Shown here piece by piece: positions 18,424 to 46,368 of a DNA stretch of 51,416 nt (positions are counted from its first letter, which is position 1; each line of letters opens with the position of its first letter). The position numbers and the translations under genes were made by a program. Source of the stretch: a virus (Duplodnaviria > Caudoviricetes); IMG/VR virus record IMGVR_UViG_3300017913_000244, positions 1 through 51,416 of that record; one strand, given 5' to 3'. The notes beneath the pieces were generated by a model. It saw only the letters and a program-made list of their open reading frames with translations, did no database searches and had not been told where the DNA came from.

Positions 18424-18429
18424 TGGTAT

Positions 18430-28480: not shown

Positions 28481-28481
28481 T

Positions 28482-28510: not shown

Positions 28511-28540
28511 AGTCGTTATATAAGTTGAGTTGAGCACCTT

Positions 28541-29599: not shown

Positions 29600-31320
29600 T
29601 CAAATTCCAAACGTTACGTTGGAAGAATTTTCTTTCGACGGGTAACTATTTTAATGAAATTAATTTTCTTGACTGCTCCACTAATCTCATTGTTGGTGAG
29701 AACGGTGCAGGCAAGTCTACAATGCTCGACGCACTGTCCTTTGCATTGTTTGGTAAGGCGCATCGAAAGATCAATAAAAATCAGTTGATCAATACAATCA
29801 ACAATAAAGATTGTGTCACTGAAGTGACTTTCACTGTTAACGGTATTCAGTATCGTGTATTGCGTGGTATCAAGCCCGCAAAGTTTGAAATCTGGAAAGA
29901 TGGTGCCATGATCAACCAGAGTTCACACGCACGTGAATATCAAGAAATTCTTGAGAAAAACGTCCTGCAGATGTCTCACAAGAGTTTCCACCAGATTGTT
30001 GTTCTCGGCTCGTCGTCTTTTATCCCGTTCATGCAACTCAACTCAACTTCTCGGCGTGACGTGATTGAAGACCTTCTTGATATTAACATATTTTCCAAAA
30101 TGAATGTGATACTCAAGGAGAAAACCTCTCTCCTCAAAGGCGAGCTAGAGAACAACAACCATTCCATTGAAGTGGTCAAGACGAAGATCAATGCACAGAA
30201 AAAGTACATTCGTGATCTGACTGCCATCAATACGCAGCAACGTAAAGACAAAGAATCTGAGATTGCGGAGTTACAGGCAGAAATCGCAGATCTTAATGCA
30301 GCTAACAGTACTCTCTCAGAAACCGTCAATAATTTGTTGCCTACCATCACAGATGCATTAAGCAATGTTCGTGCCAACAAACAGAAGTTAGAGCAGTACT
30401 ATGCGCAGTTCAAGACCCAAGTAAAGTCTGTTGTCAAAGAGGCAAAGTTTTTTGCTGAGCATGAACATTGCCCGACATGTGATCAAGACATTGCAGAAGA
30501 GCTGCGTAAAGACAAGAAAGATGCAGCGACCACAAAGGCGAAAGATCTGAAGTCTGCTATGGATCAAGCAGAAGAGAAACAACAACAGTACCAGATTGAA
30601 ATTGATTCTCTAGAAAAACAGATGAGTAGTTGTCTGGCTGATCAGAACACCTTGAATAACAATAACCAGACTATCAGTCGGTTGCAAAGATCAATCGATA
30701 AGATTCAACAAGATCTTGTTGAGATGACAGAAAACGATGGTGATATGGGACAGGCTAATTCTGATCTCACCGAACTAGACACAGAGTTACATGATTTAAC
30801 CGACACTAAGTTTCTACTAAACGAACGCGCATCATACAACCGTGTTGCGTCAGAACTGTTACGAGATACAGGTATCAAGACCAAAATCATTCGTCAATAC
30901 GTTCCTGTGATCAATGAGTTAACGAATAAGTATCTACAAATTCTGGACTTCTTTGTTCACTTTGAACTAGACGACAGTTTCAGTGAGACCATTCGATCAC
31001 GGTATCGCGATACTTTTTCGTATGATTCTTTTTCTGAGGGTGAAAAACAGCGTATCGATCTCTCCTTATTATTTACTTGGCGACAAATTGCCAAGATGAA
31101 AAATTCTGTATCAACTAATCTGTTGATATTGGATGAAACGTTTGATTCATCACTTGATGGTGAGGGCGTAGACAATCTTATGAAAATTATTGACACACTC
31201 AAAGAAGACACTAATGTCTTTGTGATCTCACATAAGACTGAACTTGAAGACGCACATTTCGAACGTAAATTGACATTTGTTAAAGAGAAAAACTTCAGCA
31301 GAATGCGAGAGACCACTTGA
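29596..31320 (+). CDS. gp46: recombination ATPase subunit gp46 (Rad50/SbcC-like)
   Basis: GENGAGKS, CPTC zinc hook, FSEGEK signature, LILDE. Confidence 0.95.
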   Translation: MIKFQTLRWKNFLSTGNYFNEINFLDCSTNLIVGENGAGKSTMLDALSFALFGKAHRKINKNQLINTINNKDCVTEVTFTVNGIQYRVLRGIKPAKFEIWKDGAMINQSSHAREYQEILEKNVLQMSHKSFHQIVVLGSSSFIPFMQLNSTSRRDVIEDLLDINIFSKMNVILKEKTSLLKGELENNNHSIEVVKTKINAQKKYIRDLTAINTQQRKDKESEIAELQAEIADLNAANSTLSETVNNLLPTITDALSNVRANKQKLEQYYAQFKTQVKSVVKEAKFFAEHEHCPTCDQDIAEELRKDKKDAATTKAKDLKSAMDQAEEKQQQYQIEIDSLEKQMSSCLADQNTLNNNNQTISRLQRSIDKIQQDLVEMTENDGDMGQANSDLTELDTELHDLTDTKFLLNERASYNRVASELLRDTGIKTKIIRQYVPVINELTNKYLQILDFFVHFELDDSFSETIRSRYRDTFSYDSFSEGEKQRIDLSLLFTWRQIAKMKNSVSTNLLILDETFDSSLDGEGVDNLMKIIDTLKEDTNVFVISHKTELEDAHFERKLTFVKEKNFSRMRETT

Positions 31321-31345
31321 CAAATAGAACTTATTATTATATAAT
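31317..31345 (+). promoter_or_regulatory. sigma70-type promoter for gp45
   Basis: TTGACA-17-TATAAT; -35 box overlaps the gp46 TGA stop. Confidence 0.8.
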
Positions 31346-31374
31346 GTGCAACATATCAACTGAGGAAATCCATC

Positions 31375-32052
31375 ATGGAACTATCTAGCCGGACTGTCGA
31401 GATCCTGCGAAACTTCTCGACAATTAATCCAAACATTGTCGTCAACGGCGGTAACGTGTTGAAGACCATGTCTATCGCAAAGAACATCGTATCTCGTGCG
31501 GAGATCGAAGAGACTTTTCCAAATACTTTTGGCATTTATGATCTGTCAGAATTTCTCTCTGTCTTATCTCTTGTAGACAATCCATCAATTACATTCTCTG
31601 AAAACTACTGCACCGTTTCTGATGGTAGTGGTCTGTCCTCAGTGAAATATTTTTACTCAGATCCAGAGATGTTGTCTGCGCCTAAGAAAGATATTGTCAT
31701 GCCTGAGTGTGAGGTCAAATTCTTACTCACTAACGAAACCCTAAGTAAGATCAAACGTGCGTCATCTGCGCTCGGCTATGACAACATTTCAATTCGTCCT
31801 TCGGGCAATTCAATTGAGATTGCAGTCGTTGACACAGAAGACTCGACATCTAACTCGTATTCGATTCAAGTTGAAGGGCAATTCCCTGCAGGCGAAGAAT
31901 TTAACTTCGTTATGGGCGTGAACAATATGAAACTTCTTGGTGAAGATTATGAGGTATCTGTCTCTACTAAACTGATCTCTCACTTCCGATCAATTAATTC
32001 TAACACGCAATACTTTATTGCACTTGAAAAGTCATCAACATACGGAGCATAA
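31375..32052 (+). CDS. gp45: sliding clamp gp45
   Basis: ILRNFSTIN, FGIYDLSEFL, YFIALE. Confidence 0.92.
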   Translation: MELSSRTVEILRNFSTINPNIVVNGGNVLKTMSIAKNIVSRAEIEETFPNTFGIYDLSEFLSVLSLVDNPSITFSENYCTVSDGSGLSSVKYFYSDPEMLSAPKKDIVMPECEVKFLLTNETLSKIKRASSALGYDNISIRPSGNSIEIAVVDTEDSTSNSYSIQVEGQFPAGEEFNFVMGVNNMKLLGEDYEVSVSTKLISHFRSINSNTQYFIALEKSSTYGA

Positions 32053-32053
32053 A

Positions 32054-32263
32054 ATGACTGACGAACAAGCAAAACTTAATGATTTGGCAAACCGCGTTGC
32101 GCGTAGTACTGTCGCTGTTGTCGATACAATCACTACACGTGGTGGTTTTAAAGGTGAAGAACTCACTACAATCGCACAGTTACGAGATCAAGCAATTCAA
32201 ACTGTTGCTCTCTATGAGGCAGTTGCAAAGCAATTTGCTGAAGACCAATCTGAGGCAGAGTAA
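32054..32263 (+). CDS. hypothetical protein
   Basis: ATG at 32054 after a GGAG SD (shorter than the track ORF); 69 aa, helical. Confidence 0.65.
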   Translation: MTDEQAKLNDLANRVARSTVAVVDTITTRGGFKGEELTTIAQLRDQAIQTVALYEAVAKQFAEDQSEAE

Positions 32264-32268
32264 AGTTT

Positions 32269-32352
32269 TGGTCCCCTAGACCATAATTATTTCTCTCTTA
32301 TTCTTGATTGACTTTTATATTATGATCTTATTGGTCTAGGGACCATTTTTTT
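32269..32352 (+). other. long-loop inverted repeat followed by T7 (terminator or structured RNA)
   Basis: TGGTCCCCTAGACCATAA ... TTATTGGTCTAGGGACCA + TTTTTTT. Confidence 0.6.
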
Positions 32353-32610
32353 ATGATTAAATGGAATCGCGAAATCGCTCGCGAAACTTTAATACATGTA
32401 AGTCTAGGAACTGTAGTTAATTATCCGCTAAATATATTTTATACGTGGTTGGCGCTCGATGTCTGGGGAGTCACGAATCCATTAGTTCTGTCTACTATTT
32501 TGACAGTAGGTATTTCGTTTGTAGCGTTCACGCGAATATATATAGTACGTAGTCTCACTGAAAAGCGAAAAGCAAAGAGACAAGAGTACATTGATAATCT
32601 CAATCTATAA
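32353..32610 (+). CDS. small membrane protein
   Basis: Two hydrophobic segments and a basic C-terminus. Confidence 0.6.
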   Translation: MIKWNREIARETLIHVSLGTVVNYPLNIFYTWLALDVWGVTNPLVLSTILTVGISFVAFTRIYIVRSLTEKRKAKRQEYIDNLNL

Positions 32611-32611
32611 T

Positions 32612-32687
<76 letters not shown>

Positions 32688-32705
32688 CCACTCTAGGAGT
32701 CCCCA

Positions 32706-33296
32706 GTGAGCTTATTGAACAAACTATCAGATTCTTTCGCAAAATCCCAAACTGCATTCTTTAGATTTTTTGCAGATACTTTCTTTCGTAATCGTTATGG
32801 GCATCGTGCGCTTGTTTTAGAAACAGTTGCTGGTGTTCCTGGTATGGTAGGAGGAATGTTAACGCACTTAAAAAGTTTGCGTAGACTACAACGTGGTAAT
32901 GGTCACAAGATTCACGAACTTCTTGCCGAAGCAGAAAATGAACGTAAACACTTGATGTTCTTTATGGAAGTGGTGCATCCATCTATTCTTGAAAGAATTA
33001 TCATCATTGTTGCACAACTAGTCTTCTGGCATTACTATCTTCTACTTTATCTGATTGCGCCTAAAACCGCACATAGAATGGTTGGGTACTTTGAAGAAGA
33101 AGCGGTTCGAAGTTATACAAACTATCTTGAACTAATTGAGGCAGGAGAGATTGAAGATGTCCCTGCGCCACAAATTGCAATTGAATATTATGATTTGCTT
33201 CCTGAAGCAAAATTATCTGAAATGATTAAATATGTGCGTCGTGATGAGATGCATCATGCTAAAGTAAATCACGCATACGGTGATGGTCGCATATAA
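32706..33296 (+). CDS. aox: alternative oxidase (ubiquinol oxidase, di-iron)
   Basis: LETVAGVPGMVGG, EAENERKHL, YFEEEA, RRDEMHH iron-binding motifs; GTG start with AGGAG SD. Confidence 0.92.
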   Translation: MSLLNKLSDSFAKSQTAFFRFFADTFFRNRYGHRALVLETVAGVPGMVGGMLTHLKSLRRLQRGNGHKIHELLAEAENERKHLMFFMEVVHPSILERIIIIVAQLVFWHYYLLLYLIAPKTAHRMVGYFEEEAVRSYTNYLELIEAGEIEDVPAPQIAIEYYDLLPEAKLSEMIKYVRRDEMHHAKVNHAYGDGRI

Positions 33297-33342
33297 ATAA
33301 TCGTTCGAAATCATTTACAGAGTGCGTACAATGTTGTATAAT
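33292..33342 (+). promoter_or_regulatory. tandem late (TATAAATA) and sigma70-type promoters upstream of gp44
   Basis: TATAAATA at 33292-33299; TTTACA(33314)-17-TATAAT(33337-33342). Confidence 0.65.
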
Positions 33343-33377
33343 ACGCACCATCGATTTCTTTATATTATGGGGTACTA

Positions 33378-34322
33378 ATGAGTAATGAATTTCTTTGGGT
33401 TGAAAAATATCGTCCTGTCTCTGTCTCTCAAACTATTCTTCCGAATGAGTTAAAGACAACTTTTCAAAACATTGTGAATGGTGGTGAGATACCAAACATG
33501 ATGTTTGCCGGTTCTGCCGGTACAGGTAAAACCACTGTCGCTCGCGCAATATGTGAAGAACTTGAACTTGACTATATCGTCATCAATGGTTCTGAAGAGG
33601 GCAATATTGATACTCTTCGAGGTAAAATTAAACAGTTCGCCTCTTCTGTTTCTCTGTCGGGTGGTTATAAAGTTGTAATACTAGACGAGGCTGACTATCT
33701 TAATCCACAGTCAACTCAACCTGCGTTACGTGGATTTATTGAAGAGTTCTCTAATAACTGTCGATTCATTATGACGTGTAACTTTGAGAACCGCATCATC
33801 GAACCTCTCCATAGTCGATGTTCGAAATATCAGTTTAACTTTAACAAAAAAACTATGGCCCAACTGTGCGGACAGTTTATGGGTCGACTTAAAACAATTC
33901 TTGAGTCAGAAAAAGTTGAATTTGATAACGATACAGTTGCACAGATTATTATGCGTCACGCGCCCGATTGGCGACGTGTGTTAAATGAATGTCAACGTGG
34001 TTCTATATCAGGAACTTTAAACCTTGCGCCCAGTTCTGATACTGACATCAGCGATACTTACACTCAGCTGTTCAGTGCGATTCGTGACAAGAACTTCAAG
34101 AAGATGCGAACATGGGTCGTCAATAATATTGACGTAGAACCTGCGTCAGTGTTTCGTGGTCTTTATGACAGAATGTATGATCACGTTGCACCGAACAGTA
34201 TTCCGCAACTCGTATTAATTCTTGCGGACTACCAGTATAAGAATGCATTTGTGGCTGATCACGAACTAAATTTGGTTGCTTGCCTCACTGAGGTCATGGC
34301 AAATGTAGAAATTAAACAATGA
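33378..34322 (+). CDS. gp44: clamp loader large subunit gp44
   Basis: LWVEKYRP, GSAGTGKTT, ILDEAD, PLHSRC. Confidence 0.95.
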   Translation: MSNEFLWVEKYRPVSVSQTILPNELKTTFQNIVNGGEIPNMMFAGSAGTGKTTVARAICEELELDYIVINGSEEGNIDTLRGKIKQFASSVSLSGGYKVVILDEADYLNPQSTQPALRGFIEEFSNNCRFIMTCNFENRIIEPLHSRCSKYQFNFNKKTMAQLCGQFMGRLKTILESEKVEFDNDTVAQIIMRHAPDWRRVLNECQRGSISGTLNLAPSSDTDISDTYTQLFSAIRDKNFKKMRTWVVNNIDVEPASVFRGLYDRMYDHVAPNSIPQLVLILADYQYKNAFVADHELNLVACLTEVMANVEIKQ

Positions 34323-34945
34323 ACACAGAAATGACGCCTGCAGATAATGTTCTGTATTTCGATAATAATATCGATGTGCGTATCTGCCCTAAAAATGGAA
34401 TGTCTTCTCTTAAAGAATTGCATAGACTAAAAAGAGGCGTTAAAGAGTATATAGGTATTGTCGATCGTCTTCACAAAGTTAAGTTGTATGGTGATCAGTT
34501 TGATATTCCATTTCGCAAAGATAGTTTTCGCATCGCAGTAAAGCGTGATCCTATAAAAAGATTCATGTCTGCGTGTGAGTATATTGTATCTAATCGATAT
34601 CGATATGAACTGAACGATAGAAGTGATGATTTGCCTATATTGCCTCTAGAGTTAGATGACGTTCTTACTGGTATAGAATCTGGTATCATTAAAAATAATC
34701 ATTTCTACACTCAGACTTGGTATATGGGTAAACCAAGCATGTACGATGTCGTATTCGATCTTGACGAATTAACTACTCTTATGTTATTATTAAATAATGC
34801 AGCAAAACTTGGATTTGATTCACAAAAAGTGAGTATTCACGATAATCGTACTACTCAGAAAGTTTACAACGATGTTTTAACTGAGTCTCAGAAACAAAGA
34901 ATTAGACAGTTTTATTGTAAAGATTATGAGAATGGGTGGTGTTGA
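34319..34945 (+). CDS. sulfotransferase-family protein (Sulfotransfer_2-like)
   Basis: CPKNGMSS (5'-PSB loop), RDPIKRFMS (3'-PB motif), NHFYTQ. Confidence 0.7.
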   Translation: MNTEMTPADNVLYFDNNIDVRICPKNGMSSLKELHRLKRGVKEYIGIVDRLHKVKLYGDQFDIPFRKDSFRIAVKRDPIKRFMSACEYIVSNRYRYELNDRSDDLPILPLELDDVLTGIESGIIKNNHFYTQTWYMGKPSMYDVVFDLDELTTLMLLLNNAAKLGFDSQKVSIHDNRTTQKVYNDVLTESQKQRIRQFYCKDYENGWC

Positions 34946-35337
34946 TGAGTGCTAAGATTGGGCCCTTTGATTTTTTAAACAGTATTAATACAAATAAGAT
35001 CAATTTAATTGATCAAGACCCGGAGGTAGAGTCTAAATATAATGCATTTTTAGTGAATCGCTCTCTGTCATATTTTCCAGATACGGTGTTTATGTCTAAT
35101 GAAATGAACAGATTGCATTATGTGGATTCAAAAATGCAATATGATTTTCTTATAAATATTGTCAGAACCAAAAAAAGATTCTCTAAATGGGATAAACCTG
35201 AACAACGAGCCGACTTGGATTGTATTAAGGAATATTTTGGCTACAGTGAATCAAAAGCGAAACAGATAATTGGACTCTTAACAGAATCGCAAATAAAAAC
35301 AATTAAAGATAAGGTATCCAGAGGTGGAAGAGAATAA
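34945..35337 (+). CDS. gp62: clamp loader small subunit gp62
   Basis: PFDFLNSIN, VNRSLSYFPD, QYDFLINIVR.KKRFSKW, YFGYS; ATG at 34945 preferred. Confidence 0.9.
   Translation: MSAKIGPFDFLNSINTNKINLIDQDPEVESKYNAFLVNRSLSYFPDTVFMSNEMNRLHYVDSKMQYDFLINIVRTKKRFSKWDKPEQRADLDCIKEYFGYSESKAKQIIGLLTESQIKTIKDKVSRGGRE
35151..35158 (+). promoter_or_regulatory. late promoter inside gp62, upstream of regA
   Basis: TATAAATA about 165 nt before the regA start. Confidence 0.55.
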
Positions 35338-35734
35338 TCTAGTCCAATGGAATTCTGATATGATGTTAGAGATAACATTAGCAGAACCAGATGACTTTTT
35401 AAAAGTCAGAGAAACATTAACACGAATAGGTGTTGCGTCACGTCGCGATAACACCTTATTTCAGTCGTGCCATATCTTGCATAAGCAGGGTAGATATTTT
35501 ATCGTCCATTTTAAAGAGTTATTTCTGTTGGATGGTAAGAAGTCAAATCTAGAAGTTTCAGATATGGAACGTCGTAACACAATCGCAACCCTTCTGCAGG
35601 ATTGGGGGCTTGTTAGCATCGTAAATAAAGATGTCGCACGTGACTGTGCGCCTATGAGACAGATTAAAATTATCTCTTATAAAGAGAAGTCAAAGTGGAA
35701 TCTGCAACCAAAGTATAATATTGGAAACAGTTGA
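35324..35734 (+). CDS. regA: translational repressor RegA
   Basis: PDDFLKVRETLTRIG, QSCHILHKQG.YFIVHFKELF. Confidence 0.95.
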   Translation: MEENNLVQWNSDMMLEITLAEPDDFLKVRETLTRIGVASRRDNTLFQSCHILHKQGRYFIVHFKELFLLDGKKSNLEVSDMERRNTIATLLQDWGLVSIVNKDVARDCAPMRQIKIISYKEKSKWNLQPKYNIGNS

Positions 35735-35736
35735 TA

Positions 35737-36276
35737 ATGTCAGATTATTATGGAATTTTTGATGATCGCGAAGATGAGATCAAAACTAAAACTCCGTTCG
35801 TAGGTCGCTTGCCGTTTAATATGGAAGAGGCCTACGGGTGGAACGAGTTCATGAACATGATGGACTCTCACCCCGATGAGTTGTATGATCGCAACTCTGA
35901 TAAGATGCGCATCGGCCTTAACTCTTTTCATAGTCGCGGTAGTGCACCGGACTTTGCGAAGAAAATATATGAGGAGATGCAAGAGGTCTTCACTCTTCAC
36001 GCCAATAAGATCACTAACATTGCATTCAGTGGTTTTGGGCGTGATAGTGGATCTTATCCTTGGCATAAAGATTCAATGGACGTTTTTCTAGTTCAGGTTA
36101 TTAGTACTGTCGGTCTCAAGGTAGAAGGCATCAATAACAATGAACCGTTCGACTTCAATCCAGGGATGTATGTGTACTTGCCTCGTGGTACTCACCACCA
36201 AGTATTTCCAAAAATCTCCCGTGTATCATTTTCGTTTGGCGTAGAGGGGGATCCAGATCCATCAATGTACTACTAA
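35737..36276 (+). CDS. JmjC/cupin-4-like Fe(II)/2OG hydroxylase
   Basis: YPWHKDSMDVFLVQ (HxD), PGMYVYLPRGTHHQV, RVSFSFG. Confidence 0.7.
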   Translation: MSDYYGIFDDREDEIKTKTPFVGRLPFNMEEAYGWNEFMNMMDSHPDELYDRNSDKMRIGLNSFHSRGSAPDFAKKIYEEMQEVFTLHANKITNIAFSGFGRDSGSYPWHKDSMDVFLVQVISTVGLKVEGINNNEPFDFNPGMYVYLPRGTHHQVFPKISRVSFSFGVEGDPDPSMYY

Positions 36277-36285
36277 GGACGATGT

Positions 36286-36537
36286 ATGTCAAAGAAGAAA
36301 AATAACAATGTTGTTTCGTTTTCTGAAGTAGCCGCAAAGAAACAGGAAAAAGAGAAAGAGTTAGAATTTTATTATAGACACTTGGACATGTGCTTGCAAA
36401 AACAAGCGTTCATAGAAATGGACATCAAGGTCACGAAAGAAATAATCGACATGATCGAAAATGAGACTGTCGTGATAGTCGATGATTCTGTACCATTATT
36501 AAGTATAGATGATGACGACTATGATTTAGATGAGTGA
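36286..36537 (+). CDS. hypothetical protein
   Basis: 83 aa ORF with AAGGA SD. Confidence 0.65.
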   Translation: MSKKKNNNVVSFSEVAAKKQEKEKELEFYYRHLDMCLQKQAFIEMDIKVTKEIIDMIENETVVIVDDSVPLLSIDDDDYDLDE

Positions 36538-36591
36538 ATTATTCACACATTGAATGTTACTTTAATACACATTTCGTGTATATATAGTATC

Positions 36592-36653
36592 GAGTGTGCC
36601 GAATAGTCGGGCACTCTTTTTAAACTTGCTTAATTTTAAGGAGTCACAACATG
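36592..36653 (+). promoter_or_regulatory. ROSE-like RNA thermometer in the hsp20 5' UTR
   Basis: 5' hairpin GAGTGTGCCGA-atag-TCGGGCACTC, then ACTTGCTT(36624-36631) pairing with the SD AAGGAGT(36638-36644) with a bulged G. Confidence 0.65.
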
Positions 36654-37139
36654 ACATTAACAGCAAAACAACTGTTCCCACGTTCAGCATTCGTCGGATT
36701 TGATACCATGATCGACGAATTAGACAGAGTCGCACGACACTCGGGTGATACGTTCCCCCCGCATAATATCCTAAAGACGGGAGAGGATCAATACCTAATC
36801 GAGTTAGCCGTCGCCGGATTCACGGAAGACGAGCTCGAGATCGAAGTAAAGAACCGAACACTTACCATTCGAGGGTCTGTAGACGACACTAATAGAGACT
36901 ATATTCACAAAGGTATTTCGACGAAAAAGTTCGAACGCCAGTTCCGTCTGTCGGAGTATGTTGAAGTAATGGGAGCTGATTTCAGGAACGGATTACTCGC
37001 AATTGCATTGGAAGTAATAATCCCTGATAGTCAGAAGCCTCGTAAAATAGAAATCAATTCGGCGCGTACTATTGAAAGCACGCCACAACTATTAAACGAG
37101 GAGAGCAACAATGGAGAAGGGTCGCCTACCGAGCTCTAA
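36651..37139 (+). CDS. hsp20: small heat shock protein Hsp20 (IbpA-like)
   Basis: FPPHNI, IELAVAGF, YIHKGIS.KKFER.F.L, NGLL, KPRKIEI. Confidence 0.93.
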   Translation: MTLTAKQLFPRSAFVGFDTMIDELDRVARHSGDTFPPHNILKTGEDQYLIELAVAGFTEDELEIEVKNRTLTIRGSVDDTNRDYIHKGISTKKFERQFRLSEYVEVMGADFRNGLLAIALEVIIPDSQKPRKIEINSARTIESTPQLLNEESNNGEGSPTEL

Positions 37140-37227
37140 GATCAGTAAGATCGAAGAGATGGGTTGGGTGTTCGCATCGCTATCAAGTGTGTTTGTGATA
37201 GCATTCTGCGTCCAACAGCTAGTCTAA
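37111..37227 (+). CDS. 38-aa putative single-pass membrane peptide (below ORF-track cutoff)
   Basis: GAGGAG SD, ATG at 37111, MEKGRLPSSKISKIEEMGWVFASLSSVFVIAFCVQQLV*; ends right before a terminator. Confidence 0.5.
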   Translation: MEKGRLPSSKISKIEEMGWVFASLSSVFVIAFCVQQLV

Positions 37228-37234
37228 TAAATAA

Positions 37235-37256
37235 GGGGGAGCAATCCCCCTTTTTT
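37235..37256 (+). terminator. Rho-independent terminator
   Basis: GGGGGA-GCAA-TCCCCC + T6 (GNRA loop). Confidence 0.88.
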
Positions 37257-37267
37257 ATGTGAGAAAT

Positions 37268-38068
37268 ATGAAAGCAATACAAATTGTAATGAAAGGAGAT
37301 AAACGGTCTGAAGAGTACGCTGCACTCTCCCGTTGGTCTTTTCAGCGCGCTATCGACGAAGGATACATTGACTCTATCGAAACGTTCGAGGCAATCACAC
37401 CTGACTCAGAAGACTTTCAAAAACACGTAGACAAGTACGTCTGGTCTAAAAGTCTTATGGGTCTTGATATCAAGTCAGGTAAAGATAAAGATGATCACTC
37501 ACCTACAGAGAAAGCGGGAATGTGTTCTCACTGGGAACTTATGCGACAACAGGGTGAATCGGATGAAAAGTTCTGGATCATGGAGCACGACACATGGTTG
37601 ATCGAAGAGCGATATGAGGCGTTCAAACTTCTCGCTGAGTACGCCGAGAACACGCTCTACGCAAACATAGGTCTGTTTATGGGTATGTACTGTATGGACC
37701 AGAGATTTGCTCACTGGGGTCACCACATGCTTGTAAACAATGCCTTTCCCATCAACTGCGGACCTTACTGCGTACTGCAACGTCTTTTTAGAACATATAC
37801 CACACATCATTTAGAGCTCCCAGAGATTGATCATTATGGCATTCGCAACACAGCCTTGCATCCTTGGAATAATTGTGATACAATAGGGGTTGGTCGTGAT
37901 ATAGGAAAATATTTCAATATGCGTGATCACAAGATGACAGGTATACCCACACCAACAACACAATTAATATCTAAGAAACTAAGTGTCACACAAGATCACC
38001 ATGGTTATAAAGATCAGCACATCGAAGAACCTTGGACGCGTCATAAATTTTTTCATGTCATCGATTGA
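37268..38068 (+). CDS. glycosyltransferase family 25-like protein
   Basis: ETFEAI, E.AGMCSHWELM, WIMEHD match the GT25 pattern (GCxxSH...EDD). Confidence 0.6.
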   Translation: MKAIQIVMKGDKRSEEYAALSRWSFQRAIDEGYIDSIETFEAITPDSEDFQKHVDKYVWSKSLMGLDIKSGKDKDDHSPTEKAGMCSHWELMRQQGESDEKFWIMEHDTWLIEERYEAFKLLAEYAENTLYANIGLFMGMYCMDQRFAHWGHHMLVNNAFPINCGPYCVLQRLFRTYTTHHLELPEIDHYGIRNTALHPWNNCDTIGVGRDIGKYFNMRDHKMTGIPTPTTQLISKKLSVTQDHHGYKDQHIEEPWTRHKFFHVID

Positions 38069-38093
38069 CAGGCGGAGCTAAATAAGTTATAAT
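38065..38093 (+). promoter_or_regulatory. sigma70-type promoter for the MTase-CmoA pair
   Basis: TTGACA-17-TATAAT. Confidence 0.8.
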
Positions 38094-38118
38094 ATCGATC
38101 AAATAGTAAAGGTATATT

Positions 38119-39270
38119 ATGACTTATACTCCCTATACTCTAGATGATGTGTACGCCGCATCATCTTTAAAGAAGTTCAATGTCATCTCTACGTTTGCGG
38201 GTGGTGGTGGCTCATCTACTGGTTATCGTCTTGCAGGTGGTGACATTCTCGCGATCAATGAATTTGTCGAAGAGGCAAGAAACACATATCGCGACAACTA
38301 TCCTAACACGCCTATTGTCCCAGATGATATCAAGCAACTCTCTGGTCAAGACTTTTTAGATCTTACAGGTCTTAAGAAAGGCGAACTTGATATACTAGAT
38401 GGGTCACCACCTTGTTCTGCATTCTCGGTTGCAGGTAAGTTATCTCACTCAAAAGAAGGCAAACACTCTGATGGTTGGGGTCAGACTAAGACGTATTCAG
38501 ATGGAATGGTTGTCGAGAACATCGAGGATCTATTCTTTGAGTTTTTACGTGTTGCCAATGATATTCAACCGAAAGTGATCATCGCGGAAAATGTGAAGGG
38601 TCTTACCATCGGTGAGGCGAAAGAGTATTACAATCGTATATTGAACGAATTCGAAAACATTGGGTATGAAGTTGTCTCTGAAGTGATGGACGCACGATAC
38701 TATGGTGTATCACAGACACGATCTCGTGTTATCTTTATTGCAGTACGAAACGATGTCGCAGAAGAAGTTGGTCTTAATTTCTTGACAATGAGTCATTTGT
38801 TTCCAGACCCATCACGTAATGTCGTACCACTAAAAGATGCACTTGTGAATCTAGAATATGATCAAGAAGAAGTAGACTACTTACGTGAAAAATTTGAGCG
38901 TACTGCCTACTGGCGCGATACTGGTTCTAAAATGGAAACATATCCAACTAAAGTATTGACGGGTATGGACTATCATCCAAAGGGTCATCACTTTAATTTA
39001 AAACGTGTGTCTCTTGAGACGCCCGCACCTACATTGACTGCAATGGGTAATGGTGACACAACCGCTGGCGCGTTTCACTGGGCAGAACCAAGAAAGTTGA
39101 CACTTGGTGAATTAAAGCGTATAATGTCACTACCAGATGATTTCAAACTCACTGGTAAATGGAATCAGAAAGCAGAACGTATTGGTCGTATGGTACCACC
39201 ATTGATGATGAAGGCAGTGGCAGAATCCGTATATGAGAACGTATTGAAGGTATACAATGAACGATCGTGA
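38119..39270 (+). CDS. C5-cytosine DNA methyltransferase-family enzyme, predicted carboxymethyltransferase
   Basis: Motif I TFAGGGG, IV GSPPC..FS, VI ENVKG, VIII QTRSR, IX RKLT..ELKR, X IGRMVPP (Arg in place of the canonical Asn). Confidence 0.9.
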   Translation: MTYTPYTLDDVYAASSLKKFNVISTFAGGGGSSTGYRLAGGDILAINEFVEEARNTYRDNYPNTPIVPDDIKQLSGQDFLDLTGLKKGELDILDGSPPCSAFSVAGKLSHSKEGKHSDGWGQTKTYSDGMVVENIEDLFFEFLRVANDIQPKVIIAENVKGLTIGEAKEYYNRILNEFENIGYEVVSEVMDARYYGVSQTRSRVIFIAVRNDVAEEVGLNFLTMSHLFPDPSRNVVPLKDALVNLEYDQEEVDYLREKFERTAYWRDTGSKMETYPTKVLTGMDYHPKGHHFNLKRVSLETPAPTLTAMGNGDTTAGAFHWAEPRKLTLGELKRIMSLPDDFKLTGKWNQKAERIGRMVPPLMMKAVAESVYENVLKVYNERS

Positions 39271-39967
39271 ACCAGATTTTTCTTTTGCGCACCGCGACGA
39301 AGGGTTTGACAACCACATCGATCAGTCGATCCGTGGTTATGCAAATCTACACGCAGATGTAGTGGCGATGTCGCAGTATTTTGTTGAAGACGACAAAAAC
39401 GTGGTTGATATTGGTTGCTCTACAGGTAAGACCATCTATGAGATGATGAAACAGAACAATCAGTTTGCTCCTCATGCGAAGTACACTGGTGTCGAATATG
39501 CATCTGGCTTCATTGATGATATGGATAATCGTTTGACCCAGATTGTCGATGAAGAACTTGGTATCTGTCGATTCATGAATCAAGACATTCGTGACTTCAC
39601 ATTTGAAGACTGCACATTGGTCACGTCACTGTTCACGTTGCAATTTATGCCACCGTCTTGTCGTAAAGATGTTTTGAAAAGAATCTATCACGGACTCGAT
39701 CAGAACGGTGCGTTCATCTTTGCAGAGAAGACCGTGAGTGAAGACGCACGTATTCAAGAGATCATGACGTTCCAGTTTTATGATCACAAACGCAAACACT
39801 TCAGTGGCAATGACATCCTTGAGAAAGAAGTCGAACTACGCCACATGTTGAAACCAAATACATGGAGAGAGTTACACAGTCTATTGATGACTGCGGGATT
39901 TGATTCCAAGAAAATCCAACCGTTCTGGCAGAACCATCTGTTCGTCGGTGCGATTGCAATCAAGTGA
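39257..39967 (+). CDS. cmoA: carboxy-S-adenosylmethionine synthase CmoA-like
   Basis: FDNHIDQSIRGY, DIGCSTG, LFTLQF, GAFIFAEK, HKR and C-terminal FWQ..F..IAIK align with CmoA hallmarks. Confidence 0.8.
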   Translation: MNDREPDFSFAHRDEGFDNHIDQSIRGYANLHADVVAMSQYFVEDDKNVVDIGCSTGKTIYEMMKQNNQFAPHAKYTGVEYASGFIDDMDNRLTQIVDEELGICRFMNQDIRDFTFEDCTLVTSLFTLQFMPPSCRKDVLKRIYHGLDQNGAFIFAEKTVSEDARIQEIMTFQFYDHKRKHFSGNDILEKEVELRHMLKPNTWRELHSLLMTAGFDSKKIQPFWQNHLFVGAIAIK

Positions 39968-39970
39968 GGG

Positions 39971-39999
39971 TTGACAACAACTCTCTTTTCGTTTATAAT
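39971..39999 (+). promoter_or_regulatory. sigma70-type promoter for gp43
   Basis: TTGACA-17-TATAAT, ending 7 nt before ATG 40007. Confidence 0.8.
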
Positions 40000-40006
40000 G
40001 GTGACC

Positions 40007-42472
40007 ATGACTGAATTTTATACATCTGCCCTACGTCGAGGGAATAATATCCTGTATCGCGGTTACAAGAACGGCGAATCTGTCAAAAAGAAAATTACAT
40101 TCAAACCCACACTTTTTATTTCAGGCGACTCGAAATCAGACTGGCGCACTCTAGACGGCAAGTCTGTCGTTGAAATGCAGTTTGATGATATGAGTGCAGC
40201 CACAGATTTTATTTCAACGTATCGCGACGTTGATAATGTTGAGATCTATGGTAATAATAACTATGTCACTCAATTTCTGACACGCAAGTTTCCTAAACGA
40301 ATTGAGTTTGATCGGTCTCTTGTAAATGTTATTAACATCGATATCGAGGTTGCGTCAGACGCTGGATTTCCTGAGCCCGAAACGGCAGATCATCCTGTCA
40401 TCTCAGTTGCGCTACGTGCGAATGACGGCACGTACTGGGTCTGGGGTATGGGTGACTACAATCCTCGAGAAAACGTCTTATACATCAAATGTGATAACGA
40501 ATTTGATCTTCTTACTAAGTTTGTTAACTACTGGTCGACACACACGCCTGACGCGATTACTGGTTGGAATACGCGATTCTTTGATATACCTTATCTGATC
40601 AATCGTATGCGCAAACTGACTGGCGACGACAAGATGTCGAATCGTCTATCGCCATGGGGTATTGTAAGAGAACAGAACATTACGATCAACGGTAAGTCTA
40701 ATCAGGCATATGTTATCGAAGGCGTTGAGTCTCTTGACTATCTTGAAGTATACAAAAAGTTTACTTATACTCAACAAGAATCATATCGCCTTGATCACAT
40801 CGCCCACGTTGAACTAGGAGAACGTAAACTTTCGTATGAAGAACACGGTAACTTGTTCACTTTGTACAAAGAAGATTATCAGAAGTTTATTGACTACAAT
40901 CTGAAAGACGTTGAGTTAGTTCACAAACTGGATGAGAAACTCGATTTGATCTCTCTGATTCTCACGATGGCGTACAAGGCGGGAGTGAACTACACTGATA
41001 CTCTTGGTACCACTAATATCTGGGATTCGATCATCTATCGCATGTTGAACGAACAAAAGATTGCAGTTCCACCTAAGACAGATAAGATCAAGACTCCATA
41101 TCCTGGTGGGTATGTGAAAGAACCTCAAGTCGGGTCTCATGAATGGGTTACATCATTTGACTTGAACTCTCTATACCCGAACATTATTGTGCAGTACAAC
41201 ATGTCACCTGAGACTGTTATGGACGGTATTATCTCTGGTGTCTCTGTAGATGGTTTCTTAGATGGTACTCATGATGTCACGAACGAGAACTATTCTCTTG
41301 CGCCGACGGGGATTCGTTTCTCTCATGATCGCAAGGGTGTAGTGCCTGCCATCATTGAGCAATATTATGCAGAACGTCGTATTATCAAAGATGAGATGCT
41401 CAAGGCTCAACAAGAGATGCAAACTAATCCCAGTAAACAACTGGAGTATCGCATAACCTCACTCAATAATAATCAGATGGCCATCAAGATTTTGATGAAC
41501 TCTCTTTATGGTGCGCTTGGCAATAAATACTTTCGTTATTTTGACCAACGCGTTGCAGAGTCCATTACTCTGGCTGGTCAGTTGGCGATCAAGTGGGCAG
41601 AAAGGACCGTAAACCATGAGATGCAAGAAATTCTTAAAACAGATGAAGATTATGTCGTGGCGATTGACACCGATTCTGTTTACATTCGAATGGGCGATCT
41701 TGTCGATCGTTTTAATCCCGTCAATCCTGTTAAGTTCTTAGATAAAATATGTTCGTCTCATTTTGAAAAGAAACTCGATAAGTCATATGCGAAGATGGCA
41801 GAAATCACGGGCGCATATGTTAATCGCATGGAGATGGGCCGCGAGGTGATCGCAGACCGTGGGATCTGGATGGCAAAGAAACGATACATTCTGAACGTCC
41901 ACAACAACGAAGGTGTCCAGTACACAGAACCCAAACTCAAGATGATGGGCATCGAGGCGATCAAATCATCTACACCTGCTGTTGTCCGTGATAAGATGAA
42001 AGAAATCTTCCGCGTCATCATCGAAGGCACTGAGTCTGATACTCAATCGTTTATCAGTAAATTCAAAACACAATTCAAAACCCTACCGCCCGAAGATGTC
42101 TCTTTCCCTCGTGGCGTTTCTGATCTCGCAAAGTGGTCAGATCGAAACACGGTATACAAGAAGAGCACACCCATCCATGTTCGCGGTGCGTTATGTTACA
42201 ATGCGGCATTGAAGAGTGCGGGTCTTACACAATCATATGAATCAGTAAAAACTGGCGAGAAAATTAAATTTGTGTATCTCAAAGTTCCAAATCGTCTGGG
42301 CGAGAATGTAGTATCATATCCTCTTAATCTGCCCAAAGAACTTGGTCTGCATTCTCACATTGATTACGATACGATGTTTAACAAAACATTTCTTGATCCT
42401 CTTGAGCCAATTCTCGATGCAGTTGGTTGGACCGCAGAACCTGCCGCATCTCTCGAAGACTTTTTCGGTTGA
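40007..42472 (+). CDS. gp43: family B DNA polymerase gp43
   Basis: Exo [32 protein letters not shown]-terminal clamp-binding SLEDFFG; true start probably ATG 40007. Confidence 0.97.
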
Positions 42473-42498
42473 CACATACACTAAGTGTATGATATGAT
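42469..42498 (+). promoter_or_regulatory. sigma70-type promoter
   Basis: TTGACA-18-TATGAT with extended -10 TG, ending 7 nt before ATG 42506. Confidence 0.55.
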
Positions 42499-42505
42499 AC
42501 ATGAC

Positions 42506-43447
42506 ATGTATGAAGTAACCATATTCAAAAATCAATATGATAACAAAACTCATCGTCGAACGTCTTTCCAGAGTTGGTTAGATTTCACGGTGAGTTTGCG
42601 TGATTCATATATGAAACCTGGAGAGAAAGGTGGCGCTAACAGTAGTCCTCTTATTACTCCTAGTGTGTTCGACGTGGGTACGACGCGCAGTAACAAATCT
42701 GTTCTTTATTGGTCTAGTTGGTGTTGCGTTGATGTGGATGATAATATTGACGGCGTTACTGATTCAGAATCTTTAAGAGAATGGTTAAAGAATCGGTTTG
42801 GTCAGTATGACTATATCGTTTATAACACTGCGAGTTGTAGAGAGAATAATATTAAGTTTAGAATTGTGTTTCGTCTAGATGAACGGGTTGAGAACGCTCG
42901 CATTCGTGCATTTTGGCACGCCTTGAATACTGAACTAGGTGAACTTGGCGATCCTCAGACAAAAGATTTATCTAGAATGTATTACGTGCCCGCCCAGTAC
43001 CCTAATGCATATTCGTTCTTTATGATTAACAACGGTGATGCAATTAATGTCTCAGAGTTGATTGCCAAACATCCTTACGTAGAAAAGTCTGGCAATTCTT
43101 TTCTAGATAGACTGCCTCTTGCCATGCAACAGGCAGTGATACAGCACCGTAAAGATGCCCTAAATAACACCGACTATCGATGGTCATCTTATCGTGACTG
43201 CCCATTCTGGCCACGTAAACTTGGTGCAGAATATCAGCAGATCACTGGTACTGGTTGGTATTCAAAGATGTACAAAATTATGATTGCGATTGCAGGTAAT
43301 GCATATAGTAAGGGTTATCCAATCACTGCATCGCAAATCGCAGATCTGTGTCGCGAGTTTGATCGCGAGACTGGTAATTGGTATGAGAACAGACCTCTCA
43401 TTGTAGAGGCAGATCGTGCCTTAGAATATATTTACAAAAACGGATGA
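42506..43447 (+). CDS. AEP-superfamily primase-polymerase-like protein
   Basis: VDVDD (DxD), YNTAS...KFRIVF, DPQTKDLSRMYYVP, helical C-terminal domain. Confidence 0.55.
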   Translation: MYEVTIFKNQYDNKTHRRTSFQSWLDFTVSLRDSYMKPGEKGGANSSPLITPSVFDVGTTRSNKSVLYWSSWCCVDVDDNIDGVTDSESLREWLKNRFGQYDYIVYNTASCRENNIKFRIVFRLDERVENARIRAFWHALNTELGELGDPQTKDLSRMYYVPAQYPNAYSFFMINNGDAINVSELIAKHPYVEKSGNSFLDRLPLAMQQAVIQHRKDALNNTDYRWSSYRDCPFWPRKLGAEYQQITGTGWYSKMYKIMIAIAGNAYSKGYPITASQIADLCREFDRETGNWYENRPLIVEADRALEYIYKNG

Positions 43448-44394
43448 ATGAAATGAAAAAAGTATTAGTAACAGGCGCAGCTGGTTTTATTGGTTCGCAA
43501 TTGGCTGCTAGATTAATGGAACGTGGTCTTGAAGTGAAGGGTATCGATAACTTCAATGATCACTTATACTCACCTCTACTGAAGGCAGATCGAGTGCGAC
43601 ATTTCGGTATCAGTATGTGGGGCTGTGATCTAACAGACGAAATTAAATTAGAAGCACTTCTGCGCGATTTCGAACCCGACACGATTGTTCACTTGGCTGC
43701 TCATGCTGGTGTTCGTGACTCTATGGGTAAAGAGAAACAATATCACGCAAACAACATTGACGGTACACAGAATCTAATTGATATCTGTAAACGATATCTG
43801 CCAGACACACGTATCGTATATGCATCAACATCGTGTGTCTATGCAGGGTCTCAAGTGCCTTGGACCGAAGGACGTGAAACTGGCAAACAGTTGAACCCTT
43901 ACGGGTGGTCAAAGTGGACCAACGAGTGTCAGTTTCAATCATCCGGACTGAACACCGTTGGTCTGCGCTTTTTTACTGTCTATGGCCCATGGGGTCGACC
44001 AGACATGGCGTTGTTTGATTTCACTAAAAACATTCTTGACGAAAATGAAATTACCGTGTATAATTTTGGTGATATGAAACGTGACTTTACTTACATCGAT
44101 GATATTCTTGATGGGATTGAAATCGTATTAGAAAATGATATGATTCCGTCTGGCGAGATTTTTAACATCGGTCGTGGTGAACAAGTCGCGCTCATGGACT
44201 TTATTGGTGAAATTGAAAAGAATACTGGCAAGACAGCAATTAAGAATCTGGCACCTAAACATCCTGCTGATACACTTGAGACTTGGTCAAATACTGCGAA
44301 ACTTCGCAAACTTGGTTACAGTCCTAAAGTAAGTATCGCTGAGGGTGTTGCCCGATTCTATGAATGGTATAAGTCTTATCATAAGGTAGATTAA
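43444..44394 (+). CDS. NAD-dependent nucleotide-sugar epimerase (UDP-glucuronate 4-epimerase-like)
   Basis: VTGAAGFIG, HLAAHAGVR, YGWSK (YxxxK), RFFTVYGPWGRPDMA. Confidence 0.9.
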   Translation: MNEMKKVLVTGAAGFIGSQLAARLMERGLEVKGIDNFNDHLYSPLLKADRVRHFGISMWGCDLTDEIKLEALLRDFEPDTIVHLAAHAGVRDSMGKEKQYHANNIDGTQNLIDICKRYLPDTRIVYASTSCVYAGSQVPWTEGRETGKQLNPYGWSKWTNECQFQSSGLNTVGLRFFTVYGPWGRPDMALFDFTKNILDENEITVYNFGDMKRDFTYIDDILDGIEIVLENDMIPSGEIFNIGRGEQVALMDFIGEIEKNTGKTAIKNLAPKHPADTLETWSNTAKLRKLGYSPKVSIAEGVARFYEWYKSYHKVD

Positions 44395-45353
44395 TGAGAC
44401 AATTTAATAAAAGAAAAAATAACAATACATTCAAGATCGGCATTGTCGGACACGGCTTTGTCGGTCAGGCAGTTGAGTATGCATTTACTCATCCGCTTGT
44501 AGAATTTCAGTTATTTGATCCAAAGTATAATAGTGATGTAGAAGATCTAAAAGACTTGGCACCTGAAGAGCATCCTCATTGCTTTTTCATTTCTGCGCCA
44601 ACGCCGTCTAATGATGACGGTTCTGTAAACTCTTCTATTGTAGAGACTGCGGCAGTCAAGTGTCTGAATTATACAGACGCAACTGTCATCGTTAAGTCTA
44701 CTATCACACCTGATGTGATTGATCGTTTATACGGTGCGATGGATAAAGAGCAGAGAGATCGATTCTGTTACAATCCAGAATTTCTGACTGAGAAAAACGC
44801 AAAGTCAGATTTCGTATCTGCAAAGTTTCATGTCATGGGCGGTACGCCTCAAGCCGTAATGGAAGTTACCGACATTTATGAAATCTTCAGTGGGTGCGAG
44901 TCAAATGAATATCATCGCATGACTGCATATGAAGCATCCTTTGTGAAATATACGATCAATTCATTCTTATCCACAAAGATCACATTCTTTAATCAGTTGT
45001 ATGATCTAGTAAATCTTTATGGTTGTAACTACAATACAATCGTTCGTGCCGCAGGTAAAGATGATCGTGTTGGTCTTGGTCACACACGAGTTCCCGGCTT
45101 TGACGGTAAACGTGGATTTGGTGGTGCATGTTTACCTAAAGACACGAAGGCATTTCTGCGTTTCTCGACACACAAAGACGTTAATGATAATGTTGTATGT
45201 TTTGACTTACTTGAAAAAGTACTTGACATCAACAGTGATTATCGTGTACAATATGACCTCGATGAACGTGAAAAAGTGAACAATATTACATTTGTAGATT
45301 TCGGAGCAAAGAATGTCGATAATGGACAAACTGAAGAAGAACTCGAAGATTAA
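44394..45353 (+). CDS. UDP-glucose/GDP-mannose 6-dehydrogenase-like (short form)
   Basis: GHGFVG, KSTITP, NPEFL, GFGGACLPKD catalytic Cys motif. Confidence 0.85.
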   Translation: MRQFNKRKNNNTFKIGIVGHGFVGQAVEYAFTHPLVEFQLFDPKYNSDVEDLKDLAPEEHPHCFFISAPTPSNDDGSVNSSIVETAAVKCLNYTDATVIVKSTITPDVIDRLYGAMDKEQRDRFCYNPEFLTEKNAKSDFVSAKFHVMGGTPQAVMEVTDIYEIFSGCESNEYHRMTAYEASFVKYTINSFLSTKITFFNQLYDLVNLYGCNYNTIVRAAGKDDRVGLGHTRVPGFDGKRGFGGACLPKDTKAFLRFSTHKDVNDNVVCFDLLEKVLDINSDYRVQYDLDEREKVNNITFVDFGAKNVDNGQTEEELED

Positions 45354-46368
45354 GGAGACTTCTACTTTATCAACGAGCAAATTCTTCACAGAAAAAGATA
45401 TGGTCCCGACAGATGTGCCAATGGTTAATGTGGCACTGTCGGGTTCAGTCAATGGTGGTATCTCGCCTGGTCTTACAGTACTTGCGGGCCCGTCAAAACA
45501 CTTCAAGACATCATTCGCCTTACTTATGGCGGGCGCATATTTAAATGCAAAACCAGATGCAGTCATGTTGTTTTATGATTCAGAGTTTGGTTCGCCTCAG
45601 TCATACTTTGAGCAGTTTGGTATTGATACAGATCGCGTGTTGCACACACCGATCGCAAATGTCGAAGAACTCAAGTTCGACATGATTAATCAACTAGAGA
45701 ATCTTGATCGCGAAGATGATGTGATCATTGTGATTGATTCTATTGGTAATCTTGCGTCCAAAAAAGAACTCGAAGATGCGCTGAATGAGAAGGGTGTTGC
45801 AGACATGTCTCGTGCGAAGGCACTTAAGGGTCTGTTCCGCATGACCACACCTTATCTGACGATGAAGAACATTCCGTTACTTGCGATCAATCACACTTAC
45901 AAAGAGATCGGTTTGTTTCCAAAAGATATCGTCGGCGGTGGTACAGGTATTTACTACTCTGCGGACAACATCTGGATTCTGGGTCGTCAACAAGAGAAGC
46001 AAGGAACTGAGGTTGTTGGTTACAACTTCGTAATCAACGTAGAGAAGTCCCGTTATGTTAAAGAGAAGTCTAAGATCCCGATTGGTGTATCATGGGAAGG
46101 TGGTGTTCAGAAGTATTCGGGTCTACTTGATGTCGCTCTTGCTGGTGGTTATGTCGCTAAGCCTTCTAACGGTTGGTATCAAAAAGTTGACACAACTACA
46201 GGCGAACTCGTTGGGACTAAAGTACGAACAAAAGACACTTTGAGCGCTGAGTTCTGGGAACCTGTATTCGAAACAACTAACTTTGCAGACTTCTTAGAGA
46301 AGACTTACAAGATCGGTTACTCTAGTGAAGTTAACGCAGAACTCATTGCTGAGTTGGAGGAAGCATGA
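45313..46368 (+). CDS. uvsX: RecA-like recombinase UvsX
   Basis: AGPSKHFKT, YDSEFG, DSIGNLASKKE, GGTGIYYSAD. Confidence 0.95.
   Translation: MSIMDKLKKNSKIKETSTLSTSKFFTEKDMVPTDVPMVNVALSGSVNGGISPGLTVLAGPSKHFKTSFALLMAGAYLNAKPDAVMLFYDSEFGSPQSYFEQFGIDTDRVLHTPIANVEELKFDMINQLENLDREDDVIIVIDSIGNLASKKELEDALNEKGVADMSRAKALKGLFRMTTPYLTMKNIPLLAINHTYKEIGLFPKDIVGGGTGIYYSADNIWILGRQQEKQGTEVVGYNFVINVEKSRYVKEKSKIPIGVSWEGGVQKYSGLLDVALAGGYVAKPSNGWYQKVDTTTGELVGTKVRTKDTLSAEFWEPVFETTNFADFLEKTYKIGYSSEVNAELIAELEEA

Follow-up and report, generated by a model that had tools for sequence, protein, structure and literature searches.

A CmoX-CmoA Gene Pair beside the DNA Polymerase Gene of a T4-like Seawater Phage, Predicted to Write 5-Carboxymethylcytosine on Phage DNA

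Introduction

The closest described relatives of the gene pair considered here, which lies at positions 38065..39967 of a 51,416-nucleotide (nt) stretch of viral DNA (IMG/VR record IMGVR_UViG_3300017913_000244; the whole stretch is referred to below as the window), are those of Synechococcus phage S-B43. According to the main text of the paper on that system (Yang et al., Nat Commun, December 2025; PMC12783734), SpCmoA makes carboxy-S-adenosylmethionine (Cx-SAM) with a kcat of 2.33 per second, compared with 0.23 per second for the E. coli enzyme, and SpCmoX (structure 8YF3), which as the wild type accepts only Cx-SAM, writes 5-carboxymethylcytosine (5cxmC) at GC. The carboxymethyl group is contacted by R350 of SpCmoX, which superimposes on N304 of M.HhaI, and an R350N mutant was inactive with both S-adenosylmethionine (SAM) and Cx-SAM. 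The mark blocks HhaI, glycine is added to it by the ligase CmoY, and native S-B43 DNA contains the glycine amide only. The same text reports 5,615 candidate CmoX, 4,257 CmoA and 2,251 ligase sequences, raises SAM depletion by phage CmoA as an open possibility, and lists the sequence specificities of CmoX enzymes as open.

The window is a 51.4 kb piece of a T4-like phage, in which open reading frames (ORFs) for portal, major capsid, sliding clamp, polymerase, UvsX and helicase-like proteins can be read from the sequence. It occurs in seawater metagenomes, none of the listed data sets that contain it being from RNA, its closest isolate is phage C48C1 (82%, capsid protein), for which a literature search gave no lead to the host, and the completeness of the record is estimated at 28%, with 72% of the genome unseen. 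We propose that its CmoX-CmoA cassette would very probably make Cx-SAM from SAM and prephenate and place 5cxmC on the phage DNA, a mark that would probably stay unconjugated and probably block restriction by the host. An earlier note on this DNA, made from the letters alone, had cautioned that related phage enzymes might recently have been reported. It was right: the system is already published, the pair is a further example rather than a discovery and, with 5,615 candidates already reported, one more copy changes little. A literature search, outside which most subscription journals lay, found the natural phage system in PMC12783734 only, the remaining papers being on engineered enzymes or unrelated.

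Results

The First Gene Is Predicted to Encode a CmoX

38119..39270, plus strand: cmoX (ORF1), predicted DNA cytosine C5-carboxymethyltransferase of 383 amino acids (aa), from the match to 8YF3 and the alignment to SpCmoX
38413..38415, plus strand: codon of the catalytic Cys99 (SPPC, residues 96-99; Cys98 in SpCmoX), from the alignment; invariant in 68/68 non-identical sequences
39187..39189, plus strand: codon CGT of Arg357, the motif X Asn-to-Arg change (IGRMVPP), predicted to contact the Cx-SAM carboxylate, from the alignment to SpCmoX R350

ORF1 matched PF00145 with an E value of 6.8e-55 which, together with the CGT codon, confirmed its description in the earlier note as a gene of the C5-cytosine methyltransferase type with IGRMVPP as motif X and R357 at 39187-39189. 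When the PDB was searched with ORF1, the top match was SpCmoX itself (8YF3, E = 7.8e-150), the next of the 44 matches being at 1e-21. A global alignment of the two proteins gave 235 identical residues in 372 (63.2%), with all nine of the residues checked being kept, i.e., F25, E47, F48, D69, S95-C98 and R350 of SpCmoX, which correspond to F26, E48, F49, D70, S96-P97-P98-C99 and R357. The candidate cytosine-binding residues E157, R201 and R203, which we take to lie in the ENV and RxR motifs, were invariant in 68/68 sequences.

The canonical motif X Asn of C5-methyltransferases (GN[AS]V; N304 in M.HhaI) is replaced in ORF1, which reads GRMV. A direct alignment of R357 to N374 of M.MpeI was not obtained, the local match to 8C56/4DKJ, presumably M.MpeI, spanning residues 135-312 only. 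The earlier identification of R357 with the cofactor-facing Asn was confirmed with two other enzymes: R357 shares its column with the GNAVP of M.HaeIII and with R350 of SpCmoX, the residue overlaying N304 of M.HhaI (main text of PMC12783734). Since the R350N mutant of SpCmoX accepted neither SAM nor Cx-SAM, an R357N mutant should be inactive, rather than a methyltransferase.

The Second Gene Is Predicted to Encode a Carboxy-SAM Synthase

39257..39967, plus strand: cmoA (ORF2), predicted carboxy-SAM synthase of 236 aa, from the alignment to SpCmoA and from AlphaFold2 (AF2) and Foldseek
39827..39841, plus strand: E191...R195 on a predicted helix (184-197), at the places of R199...E203 in E. coli CmoA, from the alignment and the AF2 model

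The second gene had been described as CmoA-like and overlapping the first, and so it proved: the overlap is 14 nt, the three PDB sequence matches of ORF2 were all CmoA/YecO proteins (E about 1e-22), and global alignment to SpCmoA gave 128 identical residues in 230 (55.7%). An AF2 model from a 44-sequence alignment had a predicted local distance difference test (pLDDT) score of 91, and the top six Foldseek matches were again CmoA/YecO (template modeling [TM] scores 0.83-0.87). Among residues of E. coli CmoA, Y39, D62, G64, S66, D117, F137, E164 and K198 are kept in ORF2, D89 is changed to Glu (E80; also Glu in SpCmoA), and N90 to Tyr.

The contacts made by E. coli CmoA, including a salt bridge from Arg199 to the carboxylate, are described in the text of PMC3663124. 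In ORF2, R195 aligns with E203 of the E. coli enzyme, one helical turn past E191, and this E191 and R195 combination was present in 59/59 non-identical CmoA sequences, SpCmoA included; the R...E order of E. coli is retained in the CmoA of an Erwinia phage. We infer that R195 may reach the active site and take over the salt bridge of Arg199. Because SpCmoA is active, the Glu/Arg exchange is, by this comparison, compatible with CmoA function, and it may bear on the roughly tenfold lead in rate of phage CmoA over the E. coli enzyme. The main text of PMC12783734 does not contain "promoter", "R199", "Arg-199" or "E203", and neither the exchange nor the internal promoter described below was found reported in the searchable literature, to which most subscription journals do not belong. 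In Staphylococcus phage PhiSepi-HH3 (L167:3947-5646), the R199/E203 positions of CmoA are occupied by S...R, and cmoA adjoins an annotated modification methylase whose C-terminus has neither GRMV nor GN[AS]V.

Motif X Arginine and cmoA Travel Together

The earlier note had raised the question whether methyltransferases with Gly-Arg in motif X co-occur with cmoA. They did so in the best 80 of the 399 viral loci that a search with ORF1 retrieved: GRM was present in motif X in 79/80 (one was cut off), cmoA in 79/80, and a CmoY relative in 27/80. Within flanks of 1.5 kb, cmoA was found in 51/80 and 52/80 loci of two further GRM-type sets, compared with 0/80 of a sister, GLM-type (Melnitz-like) set. 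Because near-duplicates occur in the locus sets, and some contigs are entered twice, these counts are not independent events. The GLM-type genes represent a large marine phage C5-methyltransferase family with Leu in motif X (L003:4010-5227; L330-L409), in which 79/80 loci read GLMVAP and cmoA is lacking within 1.5 kb.

The Window Contains No CmoY Ligase

A search of the contig for CmoY was negative: the best tblastn match of SpCmoY had an E value of 0.013, PF00733 gave no match at E ≤ 1, and a profile of 18 CmoY sequences gave a best E value of 0.025. The signal at a 77-aa ORF (50156-50389; E = 0.013-0.025) was too short and was taken as noise. The sequence free of CmoY extends 38 kb upstream and 11 kb downstream of the pair. 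Where CmoY is present it lies at most 2.3 kb from the pair (27/27 loci), and the three longer records with CmoY have the ligase beside the pair. The complete genomes of S-CRM01 (178.6 kb) and G005 (200.7 kb) contained the pair and no CmoY, in a search in which three control records were positive. RN05-S likewise has the pair, and CmoY matched three Synechococcus records of which it was not one. These comparisons suggest that CmoY is likely to be absent from the genome, and that the genome is ligase-free seems to us the somewhat better bet. Because there is no CmoY near the pair, the product would probably be unconjugated 5cxmC. The suggestion in the earlier note that the mark might be a handle for further modification holds for S-B43, where CmoY is the enzyme in question, but no such enzyme is present in this contig.

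A Longer Loop in the Variable Region of CmoX

39049..39066, plus strand: insertion of six residues (311-316) compared with SpCmoX, following PTLTA of the variable region, from the alignment

In other C5-methyltransferases this loop reads the DNA. The region after PTLTA is near-constant within the clade of the window and, with a loop six residues longer than that of SpCmoX, a GC target cannot be assumed; GC would be the default guess. Composition was uninformative as to the target. Observed/expected ratios in the window were 0.97 for GC and 0.71 for CC, with GC at 0.67-0.84 in relatives, but GC depletion in polymerase (pol) genes was similar in loci with a cmoX nearby and in those lacking one (0.52-0.81 versus 0.52-0.82) and the window values varied by region. 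The depletion of CC/GG across the window (0.58-0.78) exceeds that in most relatives, with GC near 1 overall (positions 1-14000 versus 28000-48000).

Evidence for and against Carboxymethylation

Since the two ORFs are close relatives of enzymes shown to carboxymethylate DNA cytosine, they very likely have the same activity. The chemistry deduced in the earlier note, i.e., phage-made Cx-SAM, a C5-transferase with an Arg pocket, 5cxmC and protection from restriction, is supported, having been demonstrated for the S-B43 orthologues that are 63% and 56% identical (main text of PMC12783734).

Several points weigh against this reading, or against parts of it. ORF2 missed the TIGR00740 and PRK15451 cut-offs for the bacterial CmoA equivalog (112.9 versus 193.3 and 86.4 versus 285 bits), and Arg199 and Asn132 of E. 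coli CmoA are not kept (E191, L125), although SpCmoA has both changes; on these comparisons ORF2 is filed here as a putative member of the phage SpCmoA clade and not as the bacterial tRNA equivalog. The GC target may not transfer, given the longer loop, and the anti-restriction role in this phage's host is one that we only infer. The 2.3 kb rule was drawn from loci with flanks of at most 10 kb plus the three longer records; CmoY was present in 13/26 loci flanked by 5 kb or more on each side and in the relatives L006, L007 and L011, whose CmoX is 92-93% identical to that of the window; and, with the contig 28% complete, a ligase or another tailoring enzyme could sit in the unseen part.

The points on CmoY, together with the finding that native S-B43 DNA contains the glycine amide only (main text of PMC12783734), favor a scheme in which 5cxmC is extended further, to the glycine amide or some other adduct, by a ligase in the unsequenced part of the genome. 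This is possible, but we doubt it, given a ligase that keeps so close to the pair in other loci and is not found in the window, and given two complete genomes with the pair and no CmoY. Alternatively, ORF1 might be an ordinary SAM-dependent 5-methylcytosine methyltransferase, and the CmoA-like gene might serve host tRNA modification or be an unrelated methyltransferase. Pfam and NCBIfam, whose C5 DNA methylase families take in ORF1, would fit this alternative, as would the missed CmoA cut-off and the lack of Arg199 at the aligned place in ORF2. However, Cx-SAM is the sole cofactor accepted by wild-type SpCmoX (main text of PMC12783734), the motif X Arg travels with cmoA, whereas the GLM-type relatives are without it, and the E/R pattern is the same in the proven SpCmoA. 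We therefore give this alternative hardly any credence.

A Probable Second Promoter within cmoX

38065..38093, plus strand: perfect sigma70-type promoter (TTGACA-17-TATAAT) before cmoX, its -35 box overlapping the stop codon of the upstream 269-aa gene, from a consensus scan
39097..39125, plus strand: second perfect sigma70-type promoter, inside motif IX of cmoX, predicted to drive cmoA, from the consensus scan and codon fixation

The perfect promoter 5' of the gene pair described in the earlier note, and the DNA polymerase gene directly downstream (first ATG at 40007), were both confirmed. However, its view that this single promoter drives both genes was wrong, because a second 12/12 site lies inside ORF1, 132 nt 5' of the cmoA start. 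Perfect TTGACA-17-TATAAT sites number ten in the window, compared with 0.01 expected. At the place of the cmoX promoter most close relatives have a 12/12 or 11/12 site, and the internal site is 12/12 in 47/83 scored loci (the window counted; 1 of 84 was cut off).

Codon usage at the internal site was compared in 26 representatives of less than 90% nt identity (mean 74%), with the Melnitz outgroup left out. The box codons were close to fixed (TTG in 25/26, ACA in 24/26, CGT in 25/26 and ATA in 22/26), and these four free codons all rank in the top ten for fixation among 116 invariant columns (whose median top-codon share is 0.54), with a nominal p of 3e-5 for a threshold of 0.84 that was set after seeing the data. 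The neighboring spacer codons, L329 and G330, vary freely, and another perfect promoter within an ORF of the window lies ahead of the helicase gene (46552-46580). On this evidence we consider the internal site likely to be a real cmoA promoter. It could instead be a functionless by-product of the amino acids of motif IX (LT...RIM), since part of the -10 box comes from a Met codon and since GLM-type (Melnitz-type) methyltransferases without a nearby cmoA reach 10/12 at the same place in 11/80 loci, so that coding for motif IX favors such a site; moreover, S-B43-like cmoX genes stay at or below 8/12 in 80 loci, the relatives used in the codon test are not independent, and its threshold was post hoc. 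Set against the fixed box codons beside freely varying neighbors, and the site ahead of the helicase gene, this explanation seems unlikely. Elsewhere in the window, perfect promoters at 18428-18456 and 27342-27370 lie on the minus strand, opposed to the direction of the late genes.

A dedicated, conserved and strong promoter for cmoA would also fit a different function, in which CmoA mainly drains SAM (or prephenate) from the host and so weakens SAM-dependent defenses, with DNA modification being secondary. The main text of PMC12783734 leaves SAM depletion open and gives the phage enzyme a roughly tenfold higher kcat. However, cmoA lies beside cmoX in 79/80 loci (one direction tested), and the promoter is equally explained by the supply of extra cofactor for genome-wide modification. 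We think SAM drainage as the main function quite improbable, and return to DNA carboxymethylation as the preferred reading.

A Possible Feedback Site

38077..38084, plus strand: GCTA(A/T)ATA motif in the spacer of the cmoX promoter, from a spacer comparison; an embedded late promoter, a regulatory site or shared descent

GCTA was found in 19/32 unique cmoX promoter spacers, compared with 0/32 for pol and 1/37 for primase-like genes (nominal Fisher p = 4e-11, which ignores relatedness). GC sites are present in both promoters, as GCTA in the cmoX spacer and as a GC just 5' of the internal -10 box. If these were modified by CmoX, the two genes would be damped on modified parental DNA and turned on from fresh, unmodified daughter copies, as in CfrBI, which is regulated by methylation of its promoter site (described in bioRxiv 10.64898/2025.12.04.692298). 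Such feedback by the enzyme's own mark is a weak proposal and a long shot, because GCTA also precedes CmoA-less methyltransferases (4/12 of the Melnitz/GLM type) and may be a late promoter embedded in the spacer; it is similar, though not identical, to the apparent late promoter of the phage, TATAAATA (8 sites). The motif is missing from several cmoX clades and, in a more distant cmoX set, was present in just 4/12 promoters, all previously seen, so that its standing as a CmoX-specific signal was downgraded. The wider picture, of a ligase-free branch whose virion DNA would carry free 5cxmC in a motif set by the longer recognition loop and which would sense its own mark, appears improbable to us.

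The Pair Forms an Accessory Cassette Adjoining the DNA Polymerase Gene

39966-39985, plus strand: terminator-like hairpin with T run, forming the right border of the cassette, from the consensus scan only
39971-39999, plus strand: perfect DNA polymerase promoter, overlapping the hairpin (together 39966..39999), from the consensus scan only

The DNA polymerase B ORF begins directly 3' of cmoA, after a gap of about 40 nt. Because contigs from three of four runs (X1, X2 and X4; three study codes, although X1 may be the source sample) bridge the junction, this short gap is not an assembly artefact. The -35 box of the pol promoter falls within the hairpin that closes cmoA, and its -10 box ends 7 nt 5' of the ATG at 40007 (39971-40009), so that the mRNA would be leaderless or nearly so.

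A pol-anchored set comprised 80 loci plus the window (81), from which 33 were dropped, leaving 48 with marker genes on both sides. Among these, 36 had no nearby cmo gene, nine had cmoX-cmoA and three had all three genes. In G009 the cassette lies elsewhere in the genome, so "not nearby" does not mean absent; cmoA was, however, missing altogether from C48C1 (complete), G008 (93%) and G010 (91%). The pair is thus an accessory cassette and, at 1.9 kb, that of the window is the shortest form seen. In trees (32 of 34 chosen rows), CmoX of the window grouped with L004/L005, and its CmoA fell among L009/L011/L012, a hint of mosaicism. In other genomes the site before pol carries CmoY, Methyltransf_24, DruA-like and TET-associated glycosyltransferase (TAGT) genes and several proteins without a Pfam match; examples of this cargo hotspot are L129:7299-8462, L153:9116-9967 and L088:4732-5571 (DruA-like, PF14236; TAGT, PF20691; Methyltransf_24).

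The upstream 269-aa gene was considered as a tailoring enzyme and rejected because it is common in relatives without nearby cmo genes, and so is not part of the CmoX-CmoA system; it gave no match in Pfam, NCBIfam or PHROG, and its Atlas lead was to glycosyltransferase family 25 (28% of the members of one cluster). Epimerase and UDP-glucose dehydrogenase genes were rejected on the same grounds. PHROG auxiliary genes in the window (32706-33296, 48955-49326, 43444-45353 and 27389-27829) comprise a terminal/alternative oxidase, a NifU-like Fe-S scaffold, the nucleotide-sugar epimerase with UDP-glucose dehydrogenase, and a nucleotidyltransferase. Three paralogues of 214-235 aa (33-36% identity; 1784-2491, 24240-24884 and 48281-48955) share the motif YPPGG..WH.N and had no PHROG match; we presume a resemblance to 2OG-Fe(II) oxygenases.

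Discussion

We propose the following sequence of events. Host sigma70 polymerase would transcribe the two genes early, starting cmoX at the 38065 promoter and cmoA also at the one within cmoX, as the match to consensus and the codon fixation suggest. CmoA would then carboxylate SAM, an activity demonstrated for SpCmoA. Cys99 would attack C6 of the target cytosine while Arg357 grips the carboxylate of Cx-SAM, and the carboxymethyl group would pass to C5; for SpCmoX the activity and the Arg contact have been demonstrated, and the catalytic steps are a proposal made in the main text of PMC12783734. Finally, the mark would stop cutting, as demonstrated for HhaI on SpCmoX-treated DNA.

Phages with ligase-free cassettes are candidates for carrying free 5cxmC in a natural genome, and one of them, S-CRM01, is cultured. 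A CmoX with a different loop may have a new sequence specificity, which bears on tools for sequencing and labeling based on carboxymethylation.

Compared with known systems, the pair most resembles that of S-B43, another T4-like phage with adjacent genes: CmoX and CmoA are 63% and 56% identical, the SPPC motif, the cofactor contacts and the motif X Arg are kept, and SpCmoA has the same E/R pattern at R199/E203 of E. coli. It differs from S-B43 in gene order (cmoA-cmoY-cmoX there, cmoX-cmoA here), in a cassette that lacks both CmoY and a ParB-like gene, in the loop after PTLTA that is six residues longer, in its position beside DNA polymerase, and in its own and internal promoters, the internal one being found in 0/80 S-B43-like loci. 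The pair of Synechococcus phage S-CRM01 (HQ615693.1, annotated as two methyltransferases; a search for experiments on it found none) is similarly close, with 63% and 55% identity, IGRMVPP, a loop of similar length, a complete 178.6 kb record without CmoY and a location near regA, hsp20 and pol, but its gene order is the reverse (cmoA-cmoX) and it has no internal promoter (5/12). E. coli CmoA, of the tRNA cmo5U pathway (4GEK, 4IWN), shares the fold of the ORF2 model (TM 0.84-0.86) at about 26% identity; it differs in R199/E203, N132 and D89, which are E191/R195, L125 and E80 in ORF2, and the partner of ORF2 is a DNA transferase rather than CmoB. Finally, in engineered M.MpeI N374K, as in the window CmoX, a basic residue replaces the motif X Asn, a change that admits Cx-SAM in that enzyme (main text of PMC12783734), but, unlike the window CmoX, it is engineered and CpG-specific.

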